Shown here: positions 45,080-53,881 of the stretch, piece by piece
How the letters are laid out: each line of letters starts with the position of its first letter
How positions within the stretch are numbered: position 1 is the stretch's first letter
Assembly (NCBI GenBank): GCA_039801225.1
Contig: JBDRUH010000004.1
Location: forward strand, 1-53,881
DNA length: 53,881 bases
Reading direction: 5' to 3'
DNA from: a candidate division WOR-3 bacterium
Lineage (GTDB): Bacteria > Hydrothermota > Tepidihabitantia > Tepidihabitantales > Tepidihabitantaceae
Position numbers and translations under genes: made by a program
The notes under the pieces: generated by a model
Told to the model about the DNA's origin: nothing
The model's database searches: none
What the model saw: only the letters and a program-made list of their open reading frames with translations

Positions 45080-47797
45080 ATGAAAAGAATTTTTATTATT
45101 GCTGGTGTTGTGCTGGCGCTTGGTTTATCGGTTGTCTTTGCCATTCCTGACAATCATTACCGGATGGCTGAGGTTCACAGGTTCACCCCGGTTGCTGGTG
45201 AAGAGTTAAATTATATCACCTTCAGCAACGGCTATTTTATTGACACCCGTTACGGTGAACCTTCCTTACCATCCGTTTTGCAACTTGAACCTGACAGGGT
45301 GGAAAGTTGCCACTATATCATTCAATTCACCGGTCCGATTCAGCGAATCTGGTTTAATGAACTGGCGCGTATCGGTATCAAAACCTTCGGTTACCTCCCC
45401 AACTATGCGACCATTGCCCGGCTCACGCCAACGCAAAAAGAACAACTCCAAAGTTTGCCTTTCATCCACTGGGTTGGCGTATTCCAGCCGGCTTATAAAA
45501 TTCAAAAGGAACTGTTTGATAGCGGTGGACCCCGTGACATTGCGGTATTGGTAACGCCCGATGAGAACCCAGCCATTCTTGAGGAACTAATTAGCAGTAA
45601 TAACGGCAAAGTTTTCCAGGTGACCACCAGCCCGTTCGGCACGGTCATTCACGCCACCGTACCCGGTGAGTTGATTTTTAAAATCGCCCGCCAGCCTGAG
45701 GCATTCTGGATTCAGGAGTGGACCGAGCCCGCCCTGGCGAACAATAACTGCCAGTGGGTAACCCAGTCTGGCTGGCGCTCCGTTGCACCACCTGATACCT
45801 CTCTGCAAGCCCGACCTATCTGGCAGAAAGGGGTTCGCGGTCAGAGGGTAATAATGTCCACCACCGACACCGGTCTTAATCTCGGTCACGATATGTTTCG
45901 TGACCCGGCTTTATCAGTAACTCCGCCTGGCATCTGGCCCGAACACCGCAAGGTAGTCGCTTATAAAAACTATGCCGGCGCTGACGCCTATGAGGCATTC
46001 TATCACGGCTCCCATGTAAACGGCACGGTTGCCGGAGACGACTCAGTTACTAATGGCACCAGTTTCTATGACGGGATGGCAATAAAATCCCGGCTCTATT
46101 TCGTTGACATAACCAATGGTAACACTTTCCTCCTTCCTACTGACCTTTGGTCCCTCTGGGACACAGTATATTTTGGTCGTGGTTTGCCCGACTCACTTCG
46201 CCCGATAAAGCAGCACTCCGGCTCCTGGGGCTGGTATAACTTTAATGGTACCTATCTAATTCAGGACGCATCAACCGATGCCTTCTCTTGGAAATACAAG
46301 GACTTCCTTAACATCATCGCTGCGGGCAACGAATACTCTGCCCGAACCATCCGCAACCCAGGCATCGCCAAAAATGTCCTTACTGTCGGTGCCACCCAGA
46401 ACGGCACTTCCGCCAATACCATTGCCGACTTCTCCAGTCGGGGACCGACTCAGGATGGCAGATTGAAACCCACGGTTATGGCACCGGGACAGGCGCTTTA
46501 TTCTGCCACCGCTTCGGGCACTAACACCTATGAATCTATGGATGGCACCTCTATGGCAACACCGGCGGTCAATGGCACAGTTGGGCTTCTCCGCTGTTAC
46601 CTTCAGGAAGGCTATTATCCCACCGGCGCACCGGTGGTTAAAAATCGGCTCACCTACATCTCCTCTGCCCTGCTCCGCTCAATGGCGGTCAACTCTTGCG
46701 ACCCCAATATCGGCTCCTATACCCCACCCAACAACAACATCGGCTGGGGCAGGATTGATGCCGATTCGGTGCTCTACTTCTCCGGTGATACCCGTCGGCT
46801 TATCCTAAAAGATGACACTTTTGGCGTTGCCACCGGCGAATACAAACAGGAGCAGTTTCAGGTTAACTCCTCAATCCCCTTACGCGTGACGCTTGCCTGG
46901 ACCGACACGGCAGCCGCACCTAACGCCAGCCCGACTTTAGTAAATAACCTTGACTTGGAACTCATATCGCCCTCAGGCGTCTCCTATCATGGCAACAAAT
47001 ACTCTGGTGGACAATCCGTCCCCAATCCCAACGGCTGGGATTCGCTCAATACTGAAGAGTGCTGTAGAATAAACTCACCCGAAACCGGACTGTGGACAAT
47101 AAAGGTCTGGGGGCGGAATGTGGTAACCAGTAAACCCCAGCCATTTGCCTGGACAATCACCGGTAGTGTTGGGCACCGTGATGTTGGACCAATCGGGATT
47201 TTAGCCCCGGCTGGTATCGTTGACTCCGGCTCGGTTGTTACCCCGAAGACCCTGATTAAAAACTTTAGCGATAAAACCGAAACTTTGAAGGTGGTGTTGA
47301 AAATTGGAACGGCTTATGTGGACACCCAGCCAATTGTTCTATCTGGGGGAGTTGCCGAGACGCTGGCCTTTTCTTCCTGGAGCGCTAATGTTGTCGGCAC
47401 CTATGTCAGCCGGTGCACCACCCTCCTTAATGGCGACAATAATCCAGCAAATGATATCCTGATAGACACTTTTGAGGTTGGCTACGGAAGCGGCGTAACT
47501 GAGGAAATAACCATCCCTAAAACCACTTTCCTCGCCCCAGCAATGCCCAACCCTTTCCGCAGAATAGCGATAGTTAAGTTCGGCTTACCCGAACCCTCGT
47601 TTGTCCAAATCCAGATATTCTCGGTTACCGGTGAACTGCTCAAGACGCTCTTTGCGGGCGAAAAGTCCGCTGGTTTTCACTCAATTAGTTGGAACGGCAC
47701 TGACCAAAACAACCGACCGGTTGGTTATGGGGTTTTTTACTGCCAGATGAAAAGCAAAGGCAAGACGCTCGTGAGAAAGATGGTTAAAACAAAATAA
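45080..47797 (+). CDS. Secreted S8 (subtilisin, KP-43-like) serine peptidase with Ig-like domain and FlgD/T9SS-like CTD
   Basis: Signal peptide; triad TDTG / YHGSHVNGT / GTSMATP; AAGNE, FSSRGPT.DGR.KP, LAWTD...LVNNLDL; CTD PNPF...WNGTD..NRPVG.GVFY...RKMVK. Confidence 0.92.
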   Translation: MKRIFIIAGVVLALGLSVVFAIPDNHYRMAEVHRFTPVAGEELNYITFSNGYFIDTRYGEPSLPSVLQLEPDRVESCHYIIQFTGPIQRIWFNELARIGIKTFGYLPNYATIARLTPTQKEQLQSLPFIHWVGVFQPAYKIQKELFDSGGPRDIAVLVTPDENPAILEELISSNNGKVFQVTTSPFGTVIHATVPGELIFKIARQPEAFWIQEWTEPALANNNCQWVTQSGWRSVAPPDTSLQARPIWQKGVRGQRVIMSTTDTGLNLGHDMFRDPALSVTPPGIWPEHRKVVAYKNYAGADAYEAFYHGSHVNGTVAGDDSVTNGTSFYDGMAIKSRLYFVDITNGNTFLLPTDLWSLWDTVYFGRGLPDSLRPIKQHSGSWGWYNFNGTYLIQDASTDAFSWKYKDFLNIIAAGNEYSARTIRNPGIAKNVLTVGATQNGTSANTIADFSSRGPTQDGRLKPTVMAPGQALYSATASGTNTYESMDGTSMATPAVNGTVGLLRCYLQEGYYPTGAPVVKNRLTYISSALLRSMAVNSCDPNIGSYTPPNNNIGWGRIDADSVLYFSGDTRRLILKDDTFGVATGEYKQEQFQVNSSIPLRVTLAWTDTAAAPNASPTLVNNLDLELISPSGVSYHGNKYSGGQSVPNPNGWDSLNTEECCRINSPETGLWTIKVWGRNVVTSKPQPFAWTITGSVGHRDVGPIGILAPAGIVDSGSVVTPKTLIKNFSDKTETLKVVLKIGTAYVDTQPIVLSGGVAETLAFSSWSANVVGTYVSRCTTLLNGDNNPANDILIDTFEVGYGSGVTEEITIPKTTFLAPAMPNPFRRIAIVKFGLPEPSFVQIQIFSVTGELLKTLFAGEKSAGFHSISWNGTDQNNRPVGYGVFYCQMKSKGKTLVRKMVKTK

Positions 47798-47920: not shown

Positions 47921-47998
47921 TGTCGCACCAATTGAATTTGTCGCACCGGAAAAACTTGACTAATGGACATTTTTATGTAAAATACAGTTTATGTCGCA
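47921..47998 (+). promoter_or_regulatory. Promoter of the kinase-bEBP gene: TTGACT-N16-TAAAAT (47956-47983) with three TGTCGCA boxes (47921, 47939, 47992)
   Basis: Read directly; the same heptamer forms the palindromic enhancer at 53356-53374. Confidence 0.7.
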
Positions 47999-50900
47999 TA
48001 TCGCTCAAGGGCTATTTCAACCATCTCAATTATTGTGTGAGCGATATCGGGTCGTTGAACTGTTGGGCGGAGGTGAAAAAACTGAGGTCTATAAGGTTCA
48101 CGACACTCTCAGAAATAAACTTCTCGCGCTTAAGGTTTTACGAGAGGTAAAAGGGAAAAACGATGAGTTAACCCTCAGGAGAGAGTTTTACTATCTTTCT
48201 AAACTTTATCATCCAAGAGTTGTTACCGTTTATGATTTCGGAATAACACCGGAACGCAAACCTTACTTTACAATGGAATATGTCCCCGGTATGCCAATAA
48301 CCAGATATTTTTCCGGGAAATTTAACCCGGACTTGATTGAAGTAATCACCCAACTCCTTAGAGCGCTTGATTATATCCACTCTCAAGGACTTTTGCACTG
48401 TGACCTTAAACCTCAACATATTCTCGTCTTTGAAGATAATGGCAAACCGCAGACAAAACTTTTAGATTTTGGTTTTGCCGAGCGTCGGGAGTTTTCTAAA
48501 AATGTCAGCGCCCGAGGAACCCTTGGCTATATCGCGCCCGAGGTTTTTAAAGGGGTTGACACCGATGTCCGTGCCGACCTTTATTCACTGGGGGTTGTTC
48601 TCTACGAAACTTTAACCGGCATCACTCCGGGCGAAGGTAAAGATATTTATGATTGGCTAAGAAGGCAGTATACTTCCGGTTTTTTGCCGCCCCGAAAATT
48701 CAATCCCGAAATCCCTGAAGAACTGGAAAGCCTAATTATGCAACTTCTTAGCATTGAACCGGAACGCCGACCGGCTTCGGCACGAGCGGCTTTCCAACTC
48801 CTCACCAAGAGTCTGCCAGAGGAAATTACTCCAGTTGATTTACGAGGGGATTTAATGTCCGCCGGATTTGTTGGTCGCCAGGGATGTCTCAACCGGTTGA
48901 AGGAATGGCTACGGCATTCAAAAGAAGGCAGACCAGGGGTGGTATGCATTTCCGGGGAAAGAGGCGCTGGTAAAAGTCGTCTCCTAACCGAGTTCAAGTT
49001 TTTTGCCCAGTTGGAAGGTGCGACTGTTCTGGCATTTGAGCCAGTTTCCCTAGGTGCCCGTTCCCAGTCACTGATTGAGGCGATGCTCAACCTCTTACGG
49101 CTCTATGGCGTAAGTATTGAACTAAATTTAGACACCGCAGTGGAAACCAAATTCCGCTTGTTTGAGACGGTGACTCAGCGACTCAAGAGCCTTGCCGACT
49201 CCCATAGAATACCGCATAGCCTGGTAATTATTGTGGACGACTTTGAAATGTTTGACCCGACCAGCCTGGAGTTTCTTCGTTATCTCGCCTTCGGACTGGA
49301 CAAGGAACGCCTCCTGCTGGTCGTTACCGGTTTGAATGAAAAGCGTTTTTTAGACCTGATTGACGCTCTAGTAGAAAAACGCTATTGTGAACACATTCCG
49401 ATTCCACCATTGGAGCAGGAGGAGGTAAAGAACTTATTGAGTTCCCTTTTAGGAGAGGTGATAGAAATTGACACACTCACAAGTTGGCTTTTTCACCTCA
49501 CCGGTGGTAACCCTCTCTGGACGATTGAGACAGTTTATGCCCTTATTGAAAATAAAATCCTTGTCCGGGATGGCTTAAGGTGGCGGTTAGTGTCCGAGAA
49601 ACTTCAGAAATTTCAAGCCCCTCAGGCGGTAACCGAAGTTGTCCGGCGCCGAATTGAGCGATTGACGCCAGATGAAATGGAAGTGCTAAATATCGGCGCA
49701 GTAGCGAGTGGACCTTTTACCGTAGAGTTTCTCCGCGCCGTTGGTAACTTTGACGAACAGGCTCTTTTCACTATTATCAGCCGGCTTAAGGGGTTAGGGT
49801 TTTTGCGGACATTCCGAAGTTTGGTTGATGAGAAAGATGTCTCATTAGACACATATATCCTCTCCAGCAAAATCCTGGAAACCGCAATAACCGAAAGACT
49901 CTCCATTCCCCAGCGCCGAGAACTTCATCGCCGGGTTGCTCTGACACTGGAACTCCTTTATCCGGAGAAAATTCCGGAGATGATTTTTGACCTTGCCCAC
50001 CACTGGGCTCAAACCGAAATTAAGGACCGGGCTTACCGATATTCTCTCCAGGCAGGGGCAAAGGCACAGGAGTGGCTACTTTTTGAACAGGCGCTATCTT
50101 TTTATGAACAGGGGCTTGCTCTCTCAAACGAACTAATTTCGCCCCAGGAAAAACTTCAACTGATGGAAACGGTCGGCAAACTCCGGGAAGCCACCGGCAG
50201 ATTCGCCGAGGCGATTGACCTTTACCGCCAGGGTATGGGGATTCTTGTCGCCCATCCCGAACTGTCCTTTAATAAAAAGATTTTAGCCCGATTTCTCCAA
50301 CTCATCGGTCTGGTGCATCAGAAACAAGGACAAACTACTGAGGCGCTCAATTTCCTAAAACAGGCGCTCCTATTGGAGCCAGACCGAACCGGGCTGGACT
50401 ACGCCCGGCTTCTTGCCGACCTGGGCTGGTCCTATTGTGCTATTGGAAACTTTAATCAGGCAGAAGAAGTTTTGAGCCAGGCGCTAAACTTAGCAGAGAA
50501 TTTAAAGTCAATCAAACCGCTGGAGGCAAACCGGCTTATTGCCCAGACGCTTTATTCTTTCAGCGTTCTTGCCTACTCCCGCTCTGACCTTATCTCAGCC
50601 CGACGACTTGCCGAGCGCAGCCTGGAGGTTTACGAATTGGCGCAAGATGAAATTATGAGCGCCCGGGTGAGGCAGTTTACTGCAACGCTTTACCTCCGTA
50701 TCTCAGAACCACAAAAGGCAAAAGAGTGTTACCTCCAGGCGCTGACAATCCAGCAAAGGTCTGGTGATGTATATTCCCAACTCCGTTCCCTTCACGGATT
50801 GGGTCTAATCAATTTAGAGGAAGGAAACTGGGATGACGCCTACGAACGGTTCTCTGAAGCGCTGCGACTGGCAGAAAAAATTAATGATGTAGCATCCGAG

Positions 50901-53249
50901 GTAAATCTTTGTGGTATGTTAGGAACGGTGTGCACAGAAAAAGGTGAGTGGAGTCTGGCTCAAGATTATTTTCAACGGGCACTGGAAACCGCCAGTCGTG
51001 CCGGTGAGCGAGTAGACCCTTCTGCCTTAGTTAGGTCGCTTATAAGCTTTGCTCAACTAAAGGCAAGAAAAGGAAATTTAGGGGAGGCGGAAGAGAAGAT
51101 CAAATCGGCGGTTGATTTAGCAGATGAAACTCCGGATCCGAATTTGCGCTACTATTTGCTTCTTCTTCAAGCAGAGGTCGCCCTCCGGAGAGAGCGGTTT
51201 GAACAGACAAGGGCTTTTCTGGTCCAAGCGTTCAATCTGGTGCATTCTCAGATAGGATTTGGGAAGGAAAAGGACTGGCGTCTACTAACAACACTCTATC
51301 TTCTCGCCAGCCAGTTCCGGCTAACAACTAAAGATTTTTACCGGGCAGAATTTGCTGCTAATTACGCCCTGAGATTTCTTAATAAATATCCTACTTATCG
51401 GGATTATCCAGTCGCTTTGCGGTTAACTGGGCTGGCAAAATGTTATCTCGGAAGAGCCAAAGAGGGAAAAGAGGCGATAAACCGAAGCATCCAAATTCTT
51501 CGTCACCTCGGGGCAAAATATGAACTGGGACTTTCCCTTTTGGCATCAGCCGAAGCGGTACTAAGAGTTATACCCAAGGAACAAGAAAAAGGGAATGGAG
51601 AAATTAATCCTGAGGCGCTCCAGGAGATAGAGGAAAATTTGAAGGAGGCGTTGAGCATCTTTCAGACACTCGGGGCAAAATTTGAGATCGCTCGTACTGA
51701 GGAACTCTTAAACGACTTAAAAAGAACTTACGGAGTAGCACAACTCAAGGCAAGGGAGCGAACTAAGTATCTGAAGGTGTTTTATCAACTCAGTGAACTG
51801 ATTCACCTTGGTATTGAAAAAGAGGACTTCCTTGACCAGGTCCTTGACCTGCTCATTAGCGTTACTAAAGCAGAACGGGGACTTTTATTTCTCCTTCACA
51901 ACAACCGGCTTCATCCTGTCGCAATCAGAAGTATTGAGCGGGCAACCCTGATGGATGCGGAGATGATTTCTCATTCGGTCCTGGAGAAGGTAAAACAGCG
52001 TGGCGAGCCGGTTATCAGTGTGGATGCGATAACCGATGGTCGGTTCAACATTTTTAATAGCGTCCTTTTAAACAAAATCCGCTCTTTACTCTGTGTCCCG
52101 CTGGTGGTAGAAGAAAGGGTCTTAGGCACAATCTATCTTGATAGCAGGCTTACATCTCATCTCTGGACCGAAGATGACCGCAATCTGCTCACCGCAGTTG
52201 CCAACCTCCTCGCCGCAACCATTGAACGCTCTCCCGCCTTCCAAATGCTCCAAGAGGAAACGGGTTTAAGTGAGGAAGTTATTATTGATGTTGAGGATGA
52301 AGAAATTTTCCTCAGCCGGTCAAAGGCAATGCGGGCGGTTCATCAAGTCATTGACCGAATCGCACCTACCGATTGCACCGTTCTACTTACCGGTGAAACC
52401 GGCACTGGAAAGGGGGTTTTAGCCCGACTGATTCATCAACGAAGTTCCAGGAAGGAAAAGAAGTTTGTCCCGGTCAACTGTGGCACCCTGCCCGAGACAC
52501 TTTTTGAGTCAGAACTGTTTGGACATATCCGGGGCAGTTTTACCGGTGCAATCAAGGATAAGATGGGGATTTTTGAAAGCGCCAATGGCGGCACCGTCTT
52601 TTTAGACGAAATTACCAACACCACCCCGGCAATTCAGGCAAAACTTTTACAAGTCCTTGAGGAAAAAACAATCAGGCGATTGGGCGAGACCGAAACAAGA
52701 AGAGTTGATGTCCGTTTGCTCTGTGCCACGAATAAAAACCTTATTGAGGAGGTGAAAGCCGGGAGGTTCCGGGAAGACCTCTTTTATCGGATTAATGTTG
52801 TTAACATCTATGTGCCTCCATTGCGGGAAAGGGCTGATGACATCCCTGCGCTCGCCAACTACTTCCTCCGCCGACATGCCAACCGCTTCCAAAAGCCCGT
52901 GCTCGGCTTTGATGAAGGTGTAATTGCCGCTTTTACCCAATACCATTGGCCTGGTAATGTCCGGGAACTACAGAATGCGATAGAAAGGGCGGTGATTATA
53001 ACTGATAAGAAAAAACTATCGCTTGAGGATTTCGGTGCTCCATTTGTGGAACTCTCTCCAAATAATGGTTTTGAGCCAGTGGAGAAAAAAAAGAGGCGGC
53101 ACTTGGACAGGGAAAAAGTGGTCCAGGCACTGAAAGAGACAAAAGGCAATATCACCCGAGCCGCAGAACTACTTTCCATCCATCGGCGGCATCTCCAAAG
53201 ATTGATAAAACGGTATCAGATAGACCGCGATGTTTTTGGTCAGGATTAA
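47991..53249 (+). CDS. Multidomain sigma54-dependent activator: Ser/Thr kinase + P-loop (AAA_16/STAND-like) ATPase + TPR + GAF + sigma54 AAA+ + Fis HTH
   Basis: Kinase ALKVL, HCDLKPQH, DFG, GTLGYIAPE, DLYSLG; ATPase GERGAGKS, IIVDD, TGGNP; TPR helices; GAF RSLLCVPL...VLGTIYLDS; bEBP GETGTGKG, ESELFGH.RGSFTGA, FLDEI, FREDLFYR, WPGNVRELQN; HTH GNITRAAELL. Confidence 0.92.
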   Translation: MSHIAQGLFQPSQLLCERYRVVELLGGGEKTEVYKVHDTLRNKLLALKVLREVKGKNDELTLRREFYYLSKLYHPRVVTVYDFGITPERKPYFTMEYVPGMPITRYFSGKFNPDLIEVITQLLRALDYIHSQGLLHCDLKPQHILVFEDNGKPQTKLLDFGFAERREFSKNVSARGTLGYIAPEVFKGVDTDVRADLYSLGVVLYETLTGITPGEGKDIYDWLRRQYTSGFLPPRKFNPEIPEELESLIMQLLSIEPERRPASARAAFQLLTKSLPEEITPVDLRGDLMSAGFVGRQGCLNRLKEWLRHSKEGRPGVVCISGERGAGKSRLLTEFKFFAQLEGATVLAFEPVSLGARSQSLIEAMLNLLRLYGVSIELNLDTAVETKFRLFETVTQRLKSLADSHRIPHSLVIIVDDFEMFDPTSLEFLRYLAFGLDKERLLLVVTGLNEKRFLDLIDALVEKRYCEHIPIPPLEQEEVKNLLSSLLGEVIEIDTLTSWLFHLTGGNPLWTIETVYALIENKILVRDGLRWRLVSEKLQKFQAPQAVTEVVRRRIERLTPDEMEVLNIGAVASGPFTVEFLRAVGNFDEQALFTIISRLKGLGFLRTFRSLVDEKDVSLDTYILSSKILETAITERLSIPQRRELHRRVALTLELLYPEKIPEMIFDLAHHWAQTEIKDRAYRYSLQAGAKAQEWLLFEQALSFYEQGLALSNELISPQEKLQLMETVGKLREATGRFAEAIDLYRQGMGILVAHPELSFNKKILARFLQLIGLVHQKQGQTTEALNFLKQALLLEPDRTGLDYARLLADLGWSYCAIGNFNQAEEVLSQALNLAENLKSIKPLEANRLIAQTLYSFSVLAYSRSDLISARRLAERSLEVYELAQDEIMSARVRQFTATLYLRISEPQKAKECYLQALTIQQRSGDVYSQLRSLHGLGLINLEEGNWDDAYERFSEALRLAEKINDVASEVNLCGMLGTVCTEKGEWSLAQDYFQRALETASRAGERVDPSALVRSLISFAQLKARKGNLGEAEEKIKSAVDLADETPDPNLRYYLLLLQAEVALRRERFEQTRAFLVQAFNLVHSQIGFGKEKDWRLLTTLYLLASQFRLTTKDFYRAEFAANYALRFLNKYPTYRDYPVALRLTGLAKCYLGRAKEGKEAINRSIQILRHLGAKYELGLSLLASAEAVLRVIPKEQEKGNGEINPEALQEIEENLKEALSIFQTLGAKFEIARTEELLNDLKRTYGVAQLKARERTKYLKVFYQLSELIHLGIEKEDFLDQVLDLLISVTKAERGLLFLLHNNRLHPVAIRSIERATLMDAEMISHSVLEKVKQRGEPVISVDAITDGRFNIFNSVLLNKIRSLLCVPLVVEERVLGTIYLDSRLTSHLWTEDDRNLLTAVANLLAATIERSPAFQMLQEETGLSEEVIIDVEDEEIFLSRSKAMRAVHQVIDRIAPTDCTVLLTGETGTGKGVLARLIHQRSSRKEKKFVPVNCGTLPETLFESELFGHIRGSFTGAIKDKMGIFESANGGTVFLDEITNTTPAIQAKLLQVLEEKTIRRLGETETRRVDVRLLCATNKNLIEEVKAGRFREDLFYRINVVNIYVPPLRERADDIPALANYFLRRHANRFQKPVLGFDEGVIAAFTQYHWPGNVRELQNAIERAVIITDKKKLSLEDFGAPFVELSPNNGFEPVEKKKRRHLDREKVVQALKETKGNITRAAELLSIHRRHLQRLIKRYQIDRDVFGQD

Positions 53250-53355
53250 CAGGAACTGTAGTATGCAAAATTACAATCCTGTTCACTGTTATCATCATCG
53301 CTCAATTTGCCAGACTAGACCCACCTCATTAAAATTTGCCCTCTTAAACTATCAG

Positions 53356-53444
53356 TGCGACAATTTTTGTCGCAGATTAGGTCGCACCAACATTAAGTAA
53401 TGATTTTGAAAGGAGTTACAATAATAAAGTCGAATAGTGCGACA
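53356..53444. promoter_or_regulatory. Putative bEBP upstream activator sequences: TGCGACAA-N3-TTGTCGCA (53356-53374) plus half-sites GTCGCA (53381) and TGCGACAA (53438)
   Basis: Perfect inverted repeat about 155-170 bp upstream of a sigma54 box, a typical enhancer distance. Confidence 0.7.
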
Positions 53445-53448
53445 AAAT

Positions 53449-53461
53449 TATCAATTATTTA
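53449..53461 (+). promoter_or_regulatory. IHF-binding consensus site (TATCAA-TTAT-TTA)
   Basis: Exact match to WATCAANNNNTTR, between the enhancer and the sigma54 promoter. Confidence 0.55.
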
Positions 53462-53484
53462 TATTTTGAGGAAAGGGATAATTA

Positions 53485-53514
53485 TTATAAGTAACGCAAT
53501 TGCGTTACTTATAA
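53485..53514. promoter_or_regulatory. Perfect 30-bp palindrome TTATAAGTAACGCAATTGCGTTACTTATAA (putative operator)
   Basis: Checked base by base; ends 13 bp upstream of the -24 element. Confidence 0.75.
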
Positions 53515-53527
53515 ATGTGCTCAAAAG

Positions 53528-53543
53528 TGGCACGATAATTGCA
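53528..53543 (+). promoter_or_regulatory. sigma54 (RpoN) -24/-12 promoter TGGCACG-ATAA-TTGCA
   Basis: Matches TGGCAC-N5-TTGC with correct GG/GC spacing; adjacent to a sigma54 activator gene. Confidence 0.88.
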
Positions 53544-53574
53544 GTTAATCAAAGAAAAAAGAAAGGAGAACAAA

Positions 53575-53634
53575 ATGGACGGACCGATTGTGCCAATTTA
53601 TCCGCCACCAGTTCCGCCCGCACCACCGGCGTAA
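53575..53634 (+). CDS. 19-aa proline-rich micropeptide MDGPIVPIYPPPVPPAPPA
   Basis: Strong SD (AAAGGAG, 6 nt before ATG); first ORF after the sigma54 promoter; 9 of 19 residues are Pro, using mixed codons (CCG/CCA/CCC); below the ORF-track size cutoff. Confidence 0.7.
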   Translation: MDGPIVPIYPPPVPPAPPA

Positions 53635-53648
53635 TTGGTGAAAAGAAT

Positions 53649-53690
53649 ATGATTTAATGCCCTGCCTCCATAAAGGAGGGCATTAATCAT
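53649..53690 (+). terminator. Stem-loop between the micropeptide and the pilin gene (attenuator or stabilizer)
   Basis: ATGATT(T)AATGCCCT...AGGGCATTAATCAT inverted repeat; weak U-tract. Confidence 0.6.
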
Positions 53691-53730
53691 TTAGTTGGTA
53701 GATAAACTTTAAAAAGAAAGGAGAAGTAAA

Positions 53731-53881
53731 GTGATAAAACATAACAATAAAGGTTTTACTTTGATAGAAGTATTGGTAGTCATTCTCATCCTTGGCATCC
53801 TGATGGCGATTGTCATCCCGAACTATATCCGGTATCAGGAGAATGCGCGCCGGGTGGCAGTCAAAGCAAATATGCGGGTTA
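53731..53881 (+). CDS. Type IV pilin / pseudopilin-like protein (class III signal peptide), truncated by the window end
   Basis: GTG start with SD AAAGGAG; MIKHNNKG|FTLIEVLVVILILGILMAIVIPNY, i.e. prepilin cleavage G|F, E at +5, hydrophobic helix, P22. Confidence 0.9.
   Translation, partial: MIKHNNKGFTLIEVLVVILILGILMAIVIPNYIRYQENARRVAVKANMRV

Follow-up and report, generated by a model that had tools for sequence, protein, structure and literature searches.

We analyzed a 53,881-nt stretch of DNA (the window), which is the entire contig C4 of a 1.5-Mb assembly in 72 contigs (88.8% complete) from a candidate division WOR-3 bacterium. Close to its 3' end lies a 19-codon open reading frame (ORF) for a proline-rich micropeptide, 325 nt downstream of the stop codon of a gene for a 1,752-aa regulator. 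Comparison with related genomes makes it very probable that this ORF is a genuine translated gene under the control of the adjacent regulator. The best overall explanation, to which we assign a probability of about one half, is a two-gene module of regulator and micropeptide in which the peptide would be the signalling or feedback ligand of the regulator. The single parts of this explanation differ in strength: that the micropeptide product acts in trans is quite likely, and that it is the ligand of the regulator is a tentative proposal. The elements that carry the argument are the following.

53575-53634, plus strand: gene for the proline-rich micropeptide, 19 codons; coordinates include the stop codon.
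53562-53569, plus strand: Shine-Dalgarno (SD) site AAAGGAGA, with AGGAG at 53564-53568, 6 nt 5' of the ATG.
53528-53543, plus strand: sigma-54 promoter TGGCACGATAATTGCA (TGGCAC-N5-TTGCA), 11 of 11 consensus positions.
53649-53690, plus strand: stem-loop after the stop codon, -20.1 kcal/mol, starting 14 nt after the stop, without a T-run.
47991-53249, plus strand: gene for the 1,752-aa regulator, from the ORF listing and its Pfam domains.

The ORF listing places the ATG at 53575-53577 and the TAA at 53632-53634, which leaves 19 codons. An earlier sequence-only reading of this DNA had described such an ORF with a strong SD, nine prolines including one PPP and two PP motifs in mixed codons, a GC-rich body within AT-rich flanks, a stem-loop 14 nt after the stop and a product that lacks a signal peptide, and all of these points were confirmed. 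Proline is specified by nine of the 19 codons (CCG four times, CCA four times, CCC once), and the G+C fraction is 0.60 in the ORF but falls to 0.33 over the 325 nt before it and to 0.32 over the 96 nt behind it. The peptide contains no basic residue. Its hydropathy over 12 residues reaches at most 0.69 and hence reveals neither a signal-peptide-like stretch nor a hydrophobic N-terminus. The fold of a 186-nt region gave z = -3.09, and none of 200 shuffled versions folded equally well. A six-frame translation of the whole assembly contained the core motif of the peptide a single time. Because of this uniqueness, and because frame, length and sequence are kept in other genera, we conclude that the ORF is more than a product of chance. 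A 31-codon frame with a TTG start (53539-53634) was also considered as the gene. Since its start falls inside the sigma-54 promoter, 5' of the predicted RNA start and without an SD, this frame was rejected.

Relatives were compared at three levels: 66 genomes of the order, 44 genomes of the family for a profile search, and 272 genomes of the phylum. A DNA search with 53300-53740 against 41 genomes, one of them that of the window, returned one meaningful match, 80% over 54 nt in genome G020, the rest being noise. The G020 locus comprises an orthologous regulator gene, a sigma-54 promoter, an SD, a 19-codon ORF beginning with Met-Asp-Gly-Pro-Ile and a GC hairpin followed by a T-run. The gene that comes after these, for a radical SAM protein, is convergent. 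Using a degenerate pattern with up to two mismatches, we searched the 66 genomes of the order and obtained ORFs from seven, distributed over three genera and all exactly 19 codons long; a control with the reversed pattern gave two matches. The strict form of the pattern yielded one record from all genome contigs and two stretches from metagenome contigs, one identical to the G020 type and one a chance match without SD or promoter. Among sequencing runs, DNA matching the window itself was recovered in seven rows from hot-spring metagenomes of three studies, and no RNA run was listed with a match. Contigs from four metagenome runs were fragmented, and none of them spans 53453-53590.

Full-length orthologs of the regulator, with 38-59% identity, occur across the order, and we read the DNA 3' of the stop codons of the 30 best. 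At 21 of these loci a co-directional proline-rich ORF of 16-25 codons follows the regulator stop at a distance of 208-559 nt, and five further loci have a longer ORF at the same spot. Three loci offered less than 100 nt of downstream DNA. The last one had no such ORF in the first 800 nt, and its later profile match is a 75-aa frame about 1 kb downstream. In this comparison of orthologous loci a GGAGG-type SD precedes every homologous ORF. The module recurs beside orthologous activators, at 21 of the 30 loci: activator gene, candidate binding sites, sigma-54 promoter, strong SD, proline-rich ORF and hairpin. An alignment of 24 tiny peptides (16-25 aa) revealed that P7, P10, P12 and P14 are invariant, while I8 and P18 are found in at least 90%, and 18 of the 24 start with Met-Asp-Gly or Met-Asp-Ala. 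The core reads P-I-x-P-x-P-x-P...PP. A profile made from these 24 peptides matched in 29 of the 44 family genomes. All 25 matches on contigs with a located regulator gene lie no further than about 1.1 kb from the 3' end of that gene. The other eight comprise G048, where contig ends split peptide and regulator genes, a second match in G014 on a contig without a regulator gene, and matches on contigs left unchecked. No profile match was obtained from the seven genomes in which the N-terminal 1,250 aa of the regulator were not found. In two genomes the tiny ORF is duplicated in tandem (G053, C216:8105-8246; G057, C38:10922-11060), and each copy in G057 has a separate SD.

The pattern of substitutions supports translation. 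Five groups of alignable ORFs required at least 27, 25 and 65 changes at the first, second and third codon position, respectively. This dominance of third-position changes indicates that the peptide is under purifying selection. The ratio of nonsynonymous to synonymous substitution (pN/pS) was 0.37 in a group of seven 19-codon genes and 0.24 and 0.29 in the two other variable gap-free groups. Conservation and synonymous substitution, which the sequence-only reading had named as a check, thus both favor a coding function, the frame being kept across genera. In three near-identical genomes residue 13 (R, L or Q) is the sole internal amino-acid difference. The locus might otherwise produce an untranslated, sigma-54-dependent small RNA, with the ORF arising by chance, and the RNA would indeed be short and carry a stable hairpin at its end. 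Such a reading is extremely improbable in view of the codon periodicity of the substitutions, of a start, stop, frame and strong SD that are kept across genera beyond the range in which nucleotides can be aligned, and of the tandem copies in two genomes, provided in G057 with an SD each. It also finds no Rfam family to lean on: a scan of 53200-53881 gave four matches, all with E > 5 and far under the gathering scores, and no family was assigned.

The sigma-54 promoter, which like the link to the upstream activator gene had escaped the sequence-only reading, is the sole match in the window, where 0.03 matches are expected, and a match appeared in 3 of 100 shuffled sequences. Its 3' end lies 31 nt before the micropeptide ATG, and the RNA start is predicted near 53554. 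At 14 of the 21 orthologous loci a sigma-54-like site with at least 9 of 11 consensus positions is located 31-59 nt 5' of the ATG, and 19 loci have a site with at least 8 of 11. By comparison, 10 of 1,678 control windows inside regulator genes (0.6%) reached 9 of 11. Upstream of the promoter the window contains three further elements, for which no strand is given.

53356-53374: palindrome TGCGACA-N5-TGTCGCA, a sequence repeat and candidate activator-binding site; binding is putative.
53438-53444: third TGCGACA, likewise a sequence repeat and a candidate activator-binding site with putative binding.
53485-53514: perfect 30-nt palindrome, 100% self match on the opposite strand, between the candidate activator sites and the promoter.

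The TGCGACA heptamer is strongly concentrated in the spacers between activator gene and ORF. We counted 28 copies in 5,522 nt of spacer at the 21 loci (5.07 per kb) vs. 35 copies in 111,012 nt inside the activator genes (0.32 per kb), a 16-fold enrichment, and the heptamer is found in the spacers of 18 of the 21 loci. Of 28 sigma-54-like sites in the assembly, the window site alone is preceded by three heptamers in the 250 nt before it, as against a single heptamer at one more site and none at 26. The site with the single heptamer is located at G000:C6 near 1050. In distant lineages with a different helix-turn-helix (HTH) tail of the regulator, the upstream palindromes are also different when compared by eye, which is expected if the regulator binds the palindromes. 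Thus, consensus promoter elements, rpoN encoded in the assembly (contig C5), an adjacent activator gene and enriched upstream heptamers together point to a sigma-54 promoter with a putative enhancer. The 30-nt palindrome may be where a bending protein or a second regulator binds. A TAACTTAT-like box resembling it precedes the promoter in several relatives, as seen by eye in the upstream strings. At four loci of a distant family with signal-peptide pre-peptide genes (L082, L084, L085 and L087) the promoter-like sequence is TGACAC-N5-TTGCT, with GA replacing the GG of the -24 element, and the upstream palindromes are GTGTAA...TTACAC-like and unlike the window heptamer.

The regulator itself combines a sensory N-terminal part with a sigma-54 activator. 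Its Pfam domains are listed by residue.

Residues 19-264: Ser/Thr kinase domain (Pkinase, E 1.2e-44).
Residues 293-443: STAND ATPase AAA_16 (AAA_16, E 3.8e-20).
Residues about 766-1087: MalT-like TPR array (TPR_12, TPR_1/2 and TPR_MalT matches).
Residues 1278-1411: GAF domain (GAF, E 2.3e-15).
Residues 1442-1606: sigma-54 activator AAA+ domain (Sigma54_activat, E 9e-69).
Residues 1703-1742: Fis-type HTH (HTH_8, E 4.9e-8).

Homologs of the N-terminal part are present in 104 of the 272 genomes of the phylum, and a locus search with the regulator protein alone gave four loci. In the two-gene module that we favor, the regulator would bind the TGCGACA repeats via its Fis-type HTH. A trigger on the kinase, STAND, TPR or GAF input side would then allow the AAA+ domain to open the sigma-54 promoter at 53528-53543. 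The resulting RNA would be about 140 nt long, with a leader of about 20 nt, the strong SD and the 19 codons, and would end or pause at the hairpin 53649-53690. Sensing of the micropeptide by the TPR array of the regulator would close an autoinduction loop. The hairpin, lacking T residues, may let some transcripts continue into the downstream pilin gene described below, which could be a lineage-specific passenger of the module. A complex prediction for regulator residues 450-1412 and the 19-aa peptide, both supplied as alignments, gave no answer (score 0.02) and was used neither for nor against this model.

At five loci of the order the proline-rich ORF is much longer (67-127 aa, incomplete where the contig ends) and encodes a Sec-like N-terminus followed by two to four tandem units. 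A unit starts with Asp-Gly and holds a P-x-P-x-P core, and the spacers are short and hydrophobic-acidic. We inspected 20 further, more distant loci from the phylum for proline-rich ORFs. A 16-19-codon ORF was present at five of them, a 38-aa two-unit ORF at one, a signal peptide with six units at one, and a 46-61-aa ORF consisting of a signal peptide and one proline-rich tail at eight. Altogether, 13 of 14 longer forms are Sec-like by a simple heuristic, with a basic N-terminus, a hydrophobic core, small-residue cleavage sites and a 12-residue hydropathy of at least 2.86, and the window peptide shares none of these features; signal-peptide forms span 46-127 aa. The number of units per signal-peptide precursor is 2, 3, 4 or 6 and differs between close relatives. 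Pfam and NCBIfam scans of ten longer relatives gave no match above cut-off, and the 19-aa peptide is below the useful length for such scans. When an alignment of the longer forms was compared with 5.8 billion proteins, seven relatives were retrieved, all "hypothetical" and one of them labelled candidate division WOR-3, again with varying unit numbers. The ESM Atlas, queried with two longer forms, returned no usable match. We infer that the window peptide may be a leaderless form with a single unit that descends from, or is related to, a small exported peptide. The proposed direction, from exported to leaderless, is read from the occurrence of signal-peptide forms in the most distant lineages.

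Directly after the hairpin, the window ends within another gene.

53731-53881, plus strand: type IV pilin gene with GTG start, of which the contig end leaves the 5' part (Pfam N_methyl, E 1.4e-11).

This gene is co-directional and starts 96 nt after the micropeptide stop. The adjacency is real, as a contig of another assembly spans 53606-53881 and another one covers 53653-53881 and beyond. The sequence-only reading had offered as one option that the ORF is a cis-acting leader of the pilin gene, in which stalling at the proline runs, relieved by elongation factor P (EF-P) or Pro-tRNA, would decide whether transcription or translation continues into the pilin gene. The PPP and the two PP motifs, the hairpin without T-run, the co-directional pilin gene at close distance and the presence of efp in the assembly would suit such a leader, and pilin genes under sigma-54 control are known from other bacteria. 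However, the pilin gene follows the micropeptide in the window genome only. All six closest relatives have a gene in convergent orientation after the ORF, which in five of them is the gene for a radical SAM protein with a winged-helix tail and in G046 a different one. At 20 related loci, the first open frame of at least 80 aa is convergent at ten and co-directional at ten and differs between genera; at four loci the co-directional frame reads like a putative smpB. The hairpin, on the other hand, follows the stop in all seven closest genomes and is the only structure kept in their consensus fold. A T-run comes after it in five of the six closest relatives, and the window hairpin sits at the position of their terminator, although a terminator scan found no site at 53649-53690, which does not qualify as an intrinsic terminator.

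Further features of the locus do not agree with a leader function. A conserved alternative (antiterminator) pairing was not found in the consensus fold of the seven genomes, and pairing within the ORF showed no real covariation. The hairpin begins about 30-50 nt past the proline runs and 14 nt past the stop, which is outside the footprint of a terminating ribosome. The conserved residues are alternating prolines and an isoleucine, without consecutive proline codons, and the PPP motif is missing in most homologs. Moreover, the same motif is found in tandem units and behind signal peptides, in one to six copies, where a role in stalling makes no sense. The leader model thus fails in the comparison between genomes, and we regard it as improbable. 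The second option of the sequence-only reading, a stand-alone proline-rich peptide with a transcript that is ended or stabilized by the hairpin, is supported by the conservation of promoter, SD, ORF and hairpin, as well as by the purifying selection. The terminal part of the window (53703-53881) resembles G000:C11:28205-28381 (L002), a pilin paralog with 91% identity and no peptide gene before it, and contig C11 has a pair of consecutive pilin-like genes. Probably, the pilin repeat broke the assembly at the contig end.

A peptide acting in trans need not be a ligand of the neighboring regulator. The regulator might sense something else, and the peptide would then be a plain output, that is, an effector directed at another target. 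The peptide would be exported in the lineages with signal peptides, to act on a surface, a competitor or the matrix, and would stay inside the cell in the window lineage, where its target might for instance be the ribosome tunnel or a chaperone. All that speaks for a genuine peptide under regulation and selection fits an effector equally well, and the signal-peptide and multi-unit forms suggest that part of the lineages use the motif beyond the cytoplasm. Some homologs also have P-R-P type repeats, which may resemble those of insect proline-rich peptides; proline-rich antimicrobial peptides of animals act on the ribosome tunnel or a chaperone. Yet, a single target for both exported and leaderless forms is hard to picture, and basic residues are missing from the window peptide. 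In addition, the peptide gene is the only recognizable target of the 1,752-aa regulator in the assembly, and with a sole recognizable target a feedback loop fits better than a plain output. We see a plain effector as the main rival, possible but somewhat doubtful and about as likely as the ligand role.

The peptide could also be the precursor of a ribosomally synthesized and post-translationally modified peptide (RiPP) that a dedicated enzyme turns into a natural product. A short peptide with a conserved core would be in line with this idea, and the radical SAM gene with the winged-helix tail adjoins the ORF in three genera; the window contig stops short of where that gene would lie. However, the radical SAM gene is convergent and does not occur at the locus in other genera or in G046, a division into leader and core is not visible in 16-21 residues, and apart from this gene the locus has no conserved modifying enzyme, protease or exporter. 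The RiPP-like variant mentioned in the sequence-only reading has no modifying enzyme conserved beside the ORF, and a RiPP precursor is highly unlikely.

Several observations weigh against the module with the peptide as ligand, or at least reduce the force of the data behind it. The window peptide has no export signal, and an extracellular role would require a hypothetical exporter or has been lost. Both contacts on which the model depends, of the regulator with the heptamers and of the peptide with the regulator, are putative. The proline-rich ORF was not found at 4 of the 19 assessable distant loci, one more locus having too little downstream DNA, and the profile search missed G046, a known member. 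Signal peptides were called by a home-made heuristic and not by a trained predictor. The genomes compared are kin, and locus counts across them are not independent and overstate the independence of the evidence. With respect to selection, one group of ORFs (B) has gaps, which makes its pN/pS of 0.69 unreliable, and the fifth group consists of identical sequences. Finally, with a hairpin lacking T residues and a co-directional pilin gene 96 nt on, a local cis effect on the pilin gene is possible in this genome.

The module with a peptide ligand resembles the RRNPP-type systems of Firmicutes. According to PMC10075063, these pairs consist of a small pro-peptide (10-100 aa), exported by Sec or PptAB (SHP-like), and a receptor of about 250-500 aa with peptide-binding TPRs, and receptor and peptide genes are direct neighbors. 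TPR receptors with adjacent genes for pro-peptides or leaderless peptides hence have a precedent (PMC10075063, PMC10518010). Like PlcR-PapR, Rap-Phr, NprR-NprX, Rgg-SHP and the leaderless LCP-RopB, the locus combines a tiny gene that has a strong SD with an adjacent gene for a cytoplasmic TPR regulator, the peptides carry a Sec signal peptide in part of the lineages and are leaderless in the rest, and one residue varies between close relatives and looks like a specificity position. The size of the peptide also agrees (19 aa here, 16-25 aa in homologs, 46-127 aa with signal peptide), and the genes are adjacent, separated by 325 nt in the window and by 208-559 nt at the 21 loci. Export does not agree for the window peptide, although 13 of 14 longer relatives have a Sec-like N-terminus by our heuristic. 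The TPRs of the regulator at residues 766-1087 or so are of the MalT/STAND kind, and peptide binding by them is hypothetical. At 1,752 aa the regulator is far from a 250-500-aa HTH-TPR receptor. Because receptor size fails to match, and export fails for the window peptide, the module is not a member of the RRNPP family. It is also set apart by its sigma-54 promoter, the proline-rich peptide and the multi-unit precursors, and by its origin from an uncultivated hot-spring bacterium outside the Firmicutes.

Other known systems share single features with the locus. The Salmonella leaders mgtL and mgtP are ORFs with proline codons that belong to a fixed downstream gene and work with alternative stem-loops. 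The micropeptide ORF is likewise short, has several or consecutive proline codons, and its translation should depend on EF-P and Pro-tRNA, but it has its own promoter, a terminator in relatives, a variable downstream gene, selection on the amino-acid sequence and exported versions. Regulators of the MalT/PknK type have the same succession of an AAA_16 NTPase and a MalT-like TPR sensor. In the STAND class, ligand binding to the sensor drives oligomerization, which would suit the assembly of a sigma-54 activator ring. Unlike in that class, this succession is joined in the regulator to a GAF domain and a complete sigma-54 activator including the HTH, and a micropeptide gene accompanies it. Sigma-54/PilR-dependent pilin promoters are known in Pseudomonas, Myxococcus and Geobacter, and the window also has a sigma-54 promoter 5' of a type IV pilin gene. 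In contrast to these, the promoter is that of the peptide gene throughout the relatives, where no pilin gene is present, and the activator is not a PilR-type response regulator. Neither a sigma-54-driven proline-rich micropeptide nor a regulator-peptide pair of this kind was described in the titles and abstract openings that literature searches listed.

Taken to its full extent, the ligand model would imply peptide signalling outside the Firmicutes, in an uncultivated phylum of mostly small genomes (candidate division WOR-3 by the label of one relative). A giant kinase-STAND-TPR-GAF-sigma-54 activator would be the cytoplasmic receptor of a self-induced proline-rich peptide. This peptide would be exported in some lineages as a signal peptide with one to six units that need excision, and be reduced here to a leaderless 19-mer that serves as a private positive-feedback switch and has captured a pilin gene. 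We put forward this complete scenario as a speculation, rather unlikely to hold in all of its parts. If the peptide is the ligand, receptor-adjacent peptide signalling reaches a new phylum and sigma-54/STAND receptors, the widespread orphan kinase-sigma-54 fusion proteins gain a function, and the family shows how an exported signal becomes an intracellular switch. The plainest reading is still a new conserved micropeptide family and a correction of the leader-peptide reading. Genes of this size go unannotated, and rarely are promoter and regulator both defined for one of them. The complete and conserved regulatory address would permit direct testing with a reporter and synthetic peptide, without culturing the organism.

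The surroundings of the regulator gene provided some minor observations. Directly upstream and co-directional lies a gene for a 905-aa secreted subtilase (45080-47797; Peptidase_S8, E 1.3e-31) with a FlgD_ig-like C-terminal domain. This S8 subtilase was considered as the peptide-processing enzyme and set aside, because the gene at that position differs among relatives. In the catalytic loop of the regulator kinase (residues 140-146, about 48408-48428) a His takes the place of the Asn of D-L-K-P-x-N that the majority of the 30 orthologs have, and the kinase may be weakened in the window lineage. TGTCGCA heptamers are located at 47921 and 47939 (region 47921-47984), just 5' of a sigma-70-like promoter of the regulator gene (TTGACT, 17 nt, TAAAAT), which suggests that the regulator may also control its own gene.

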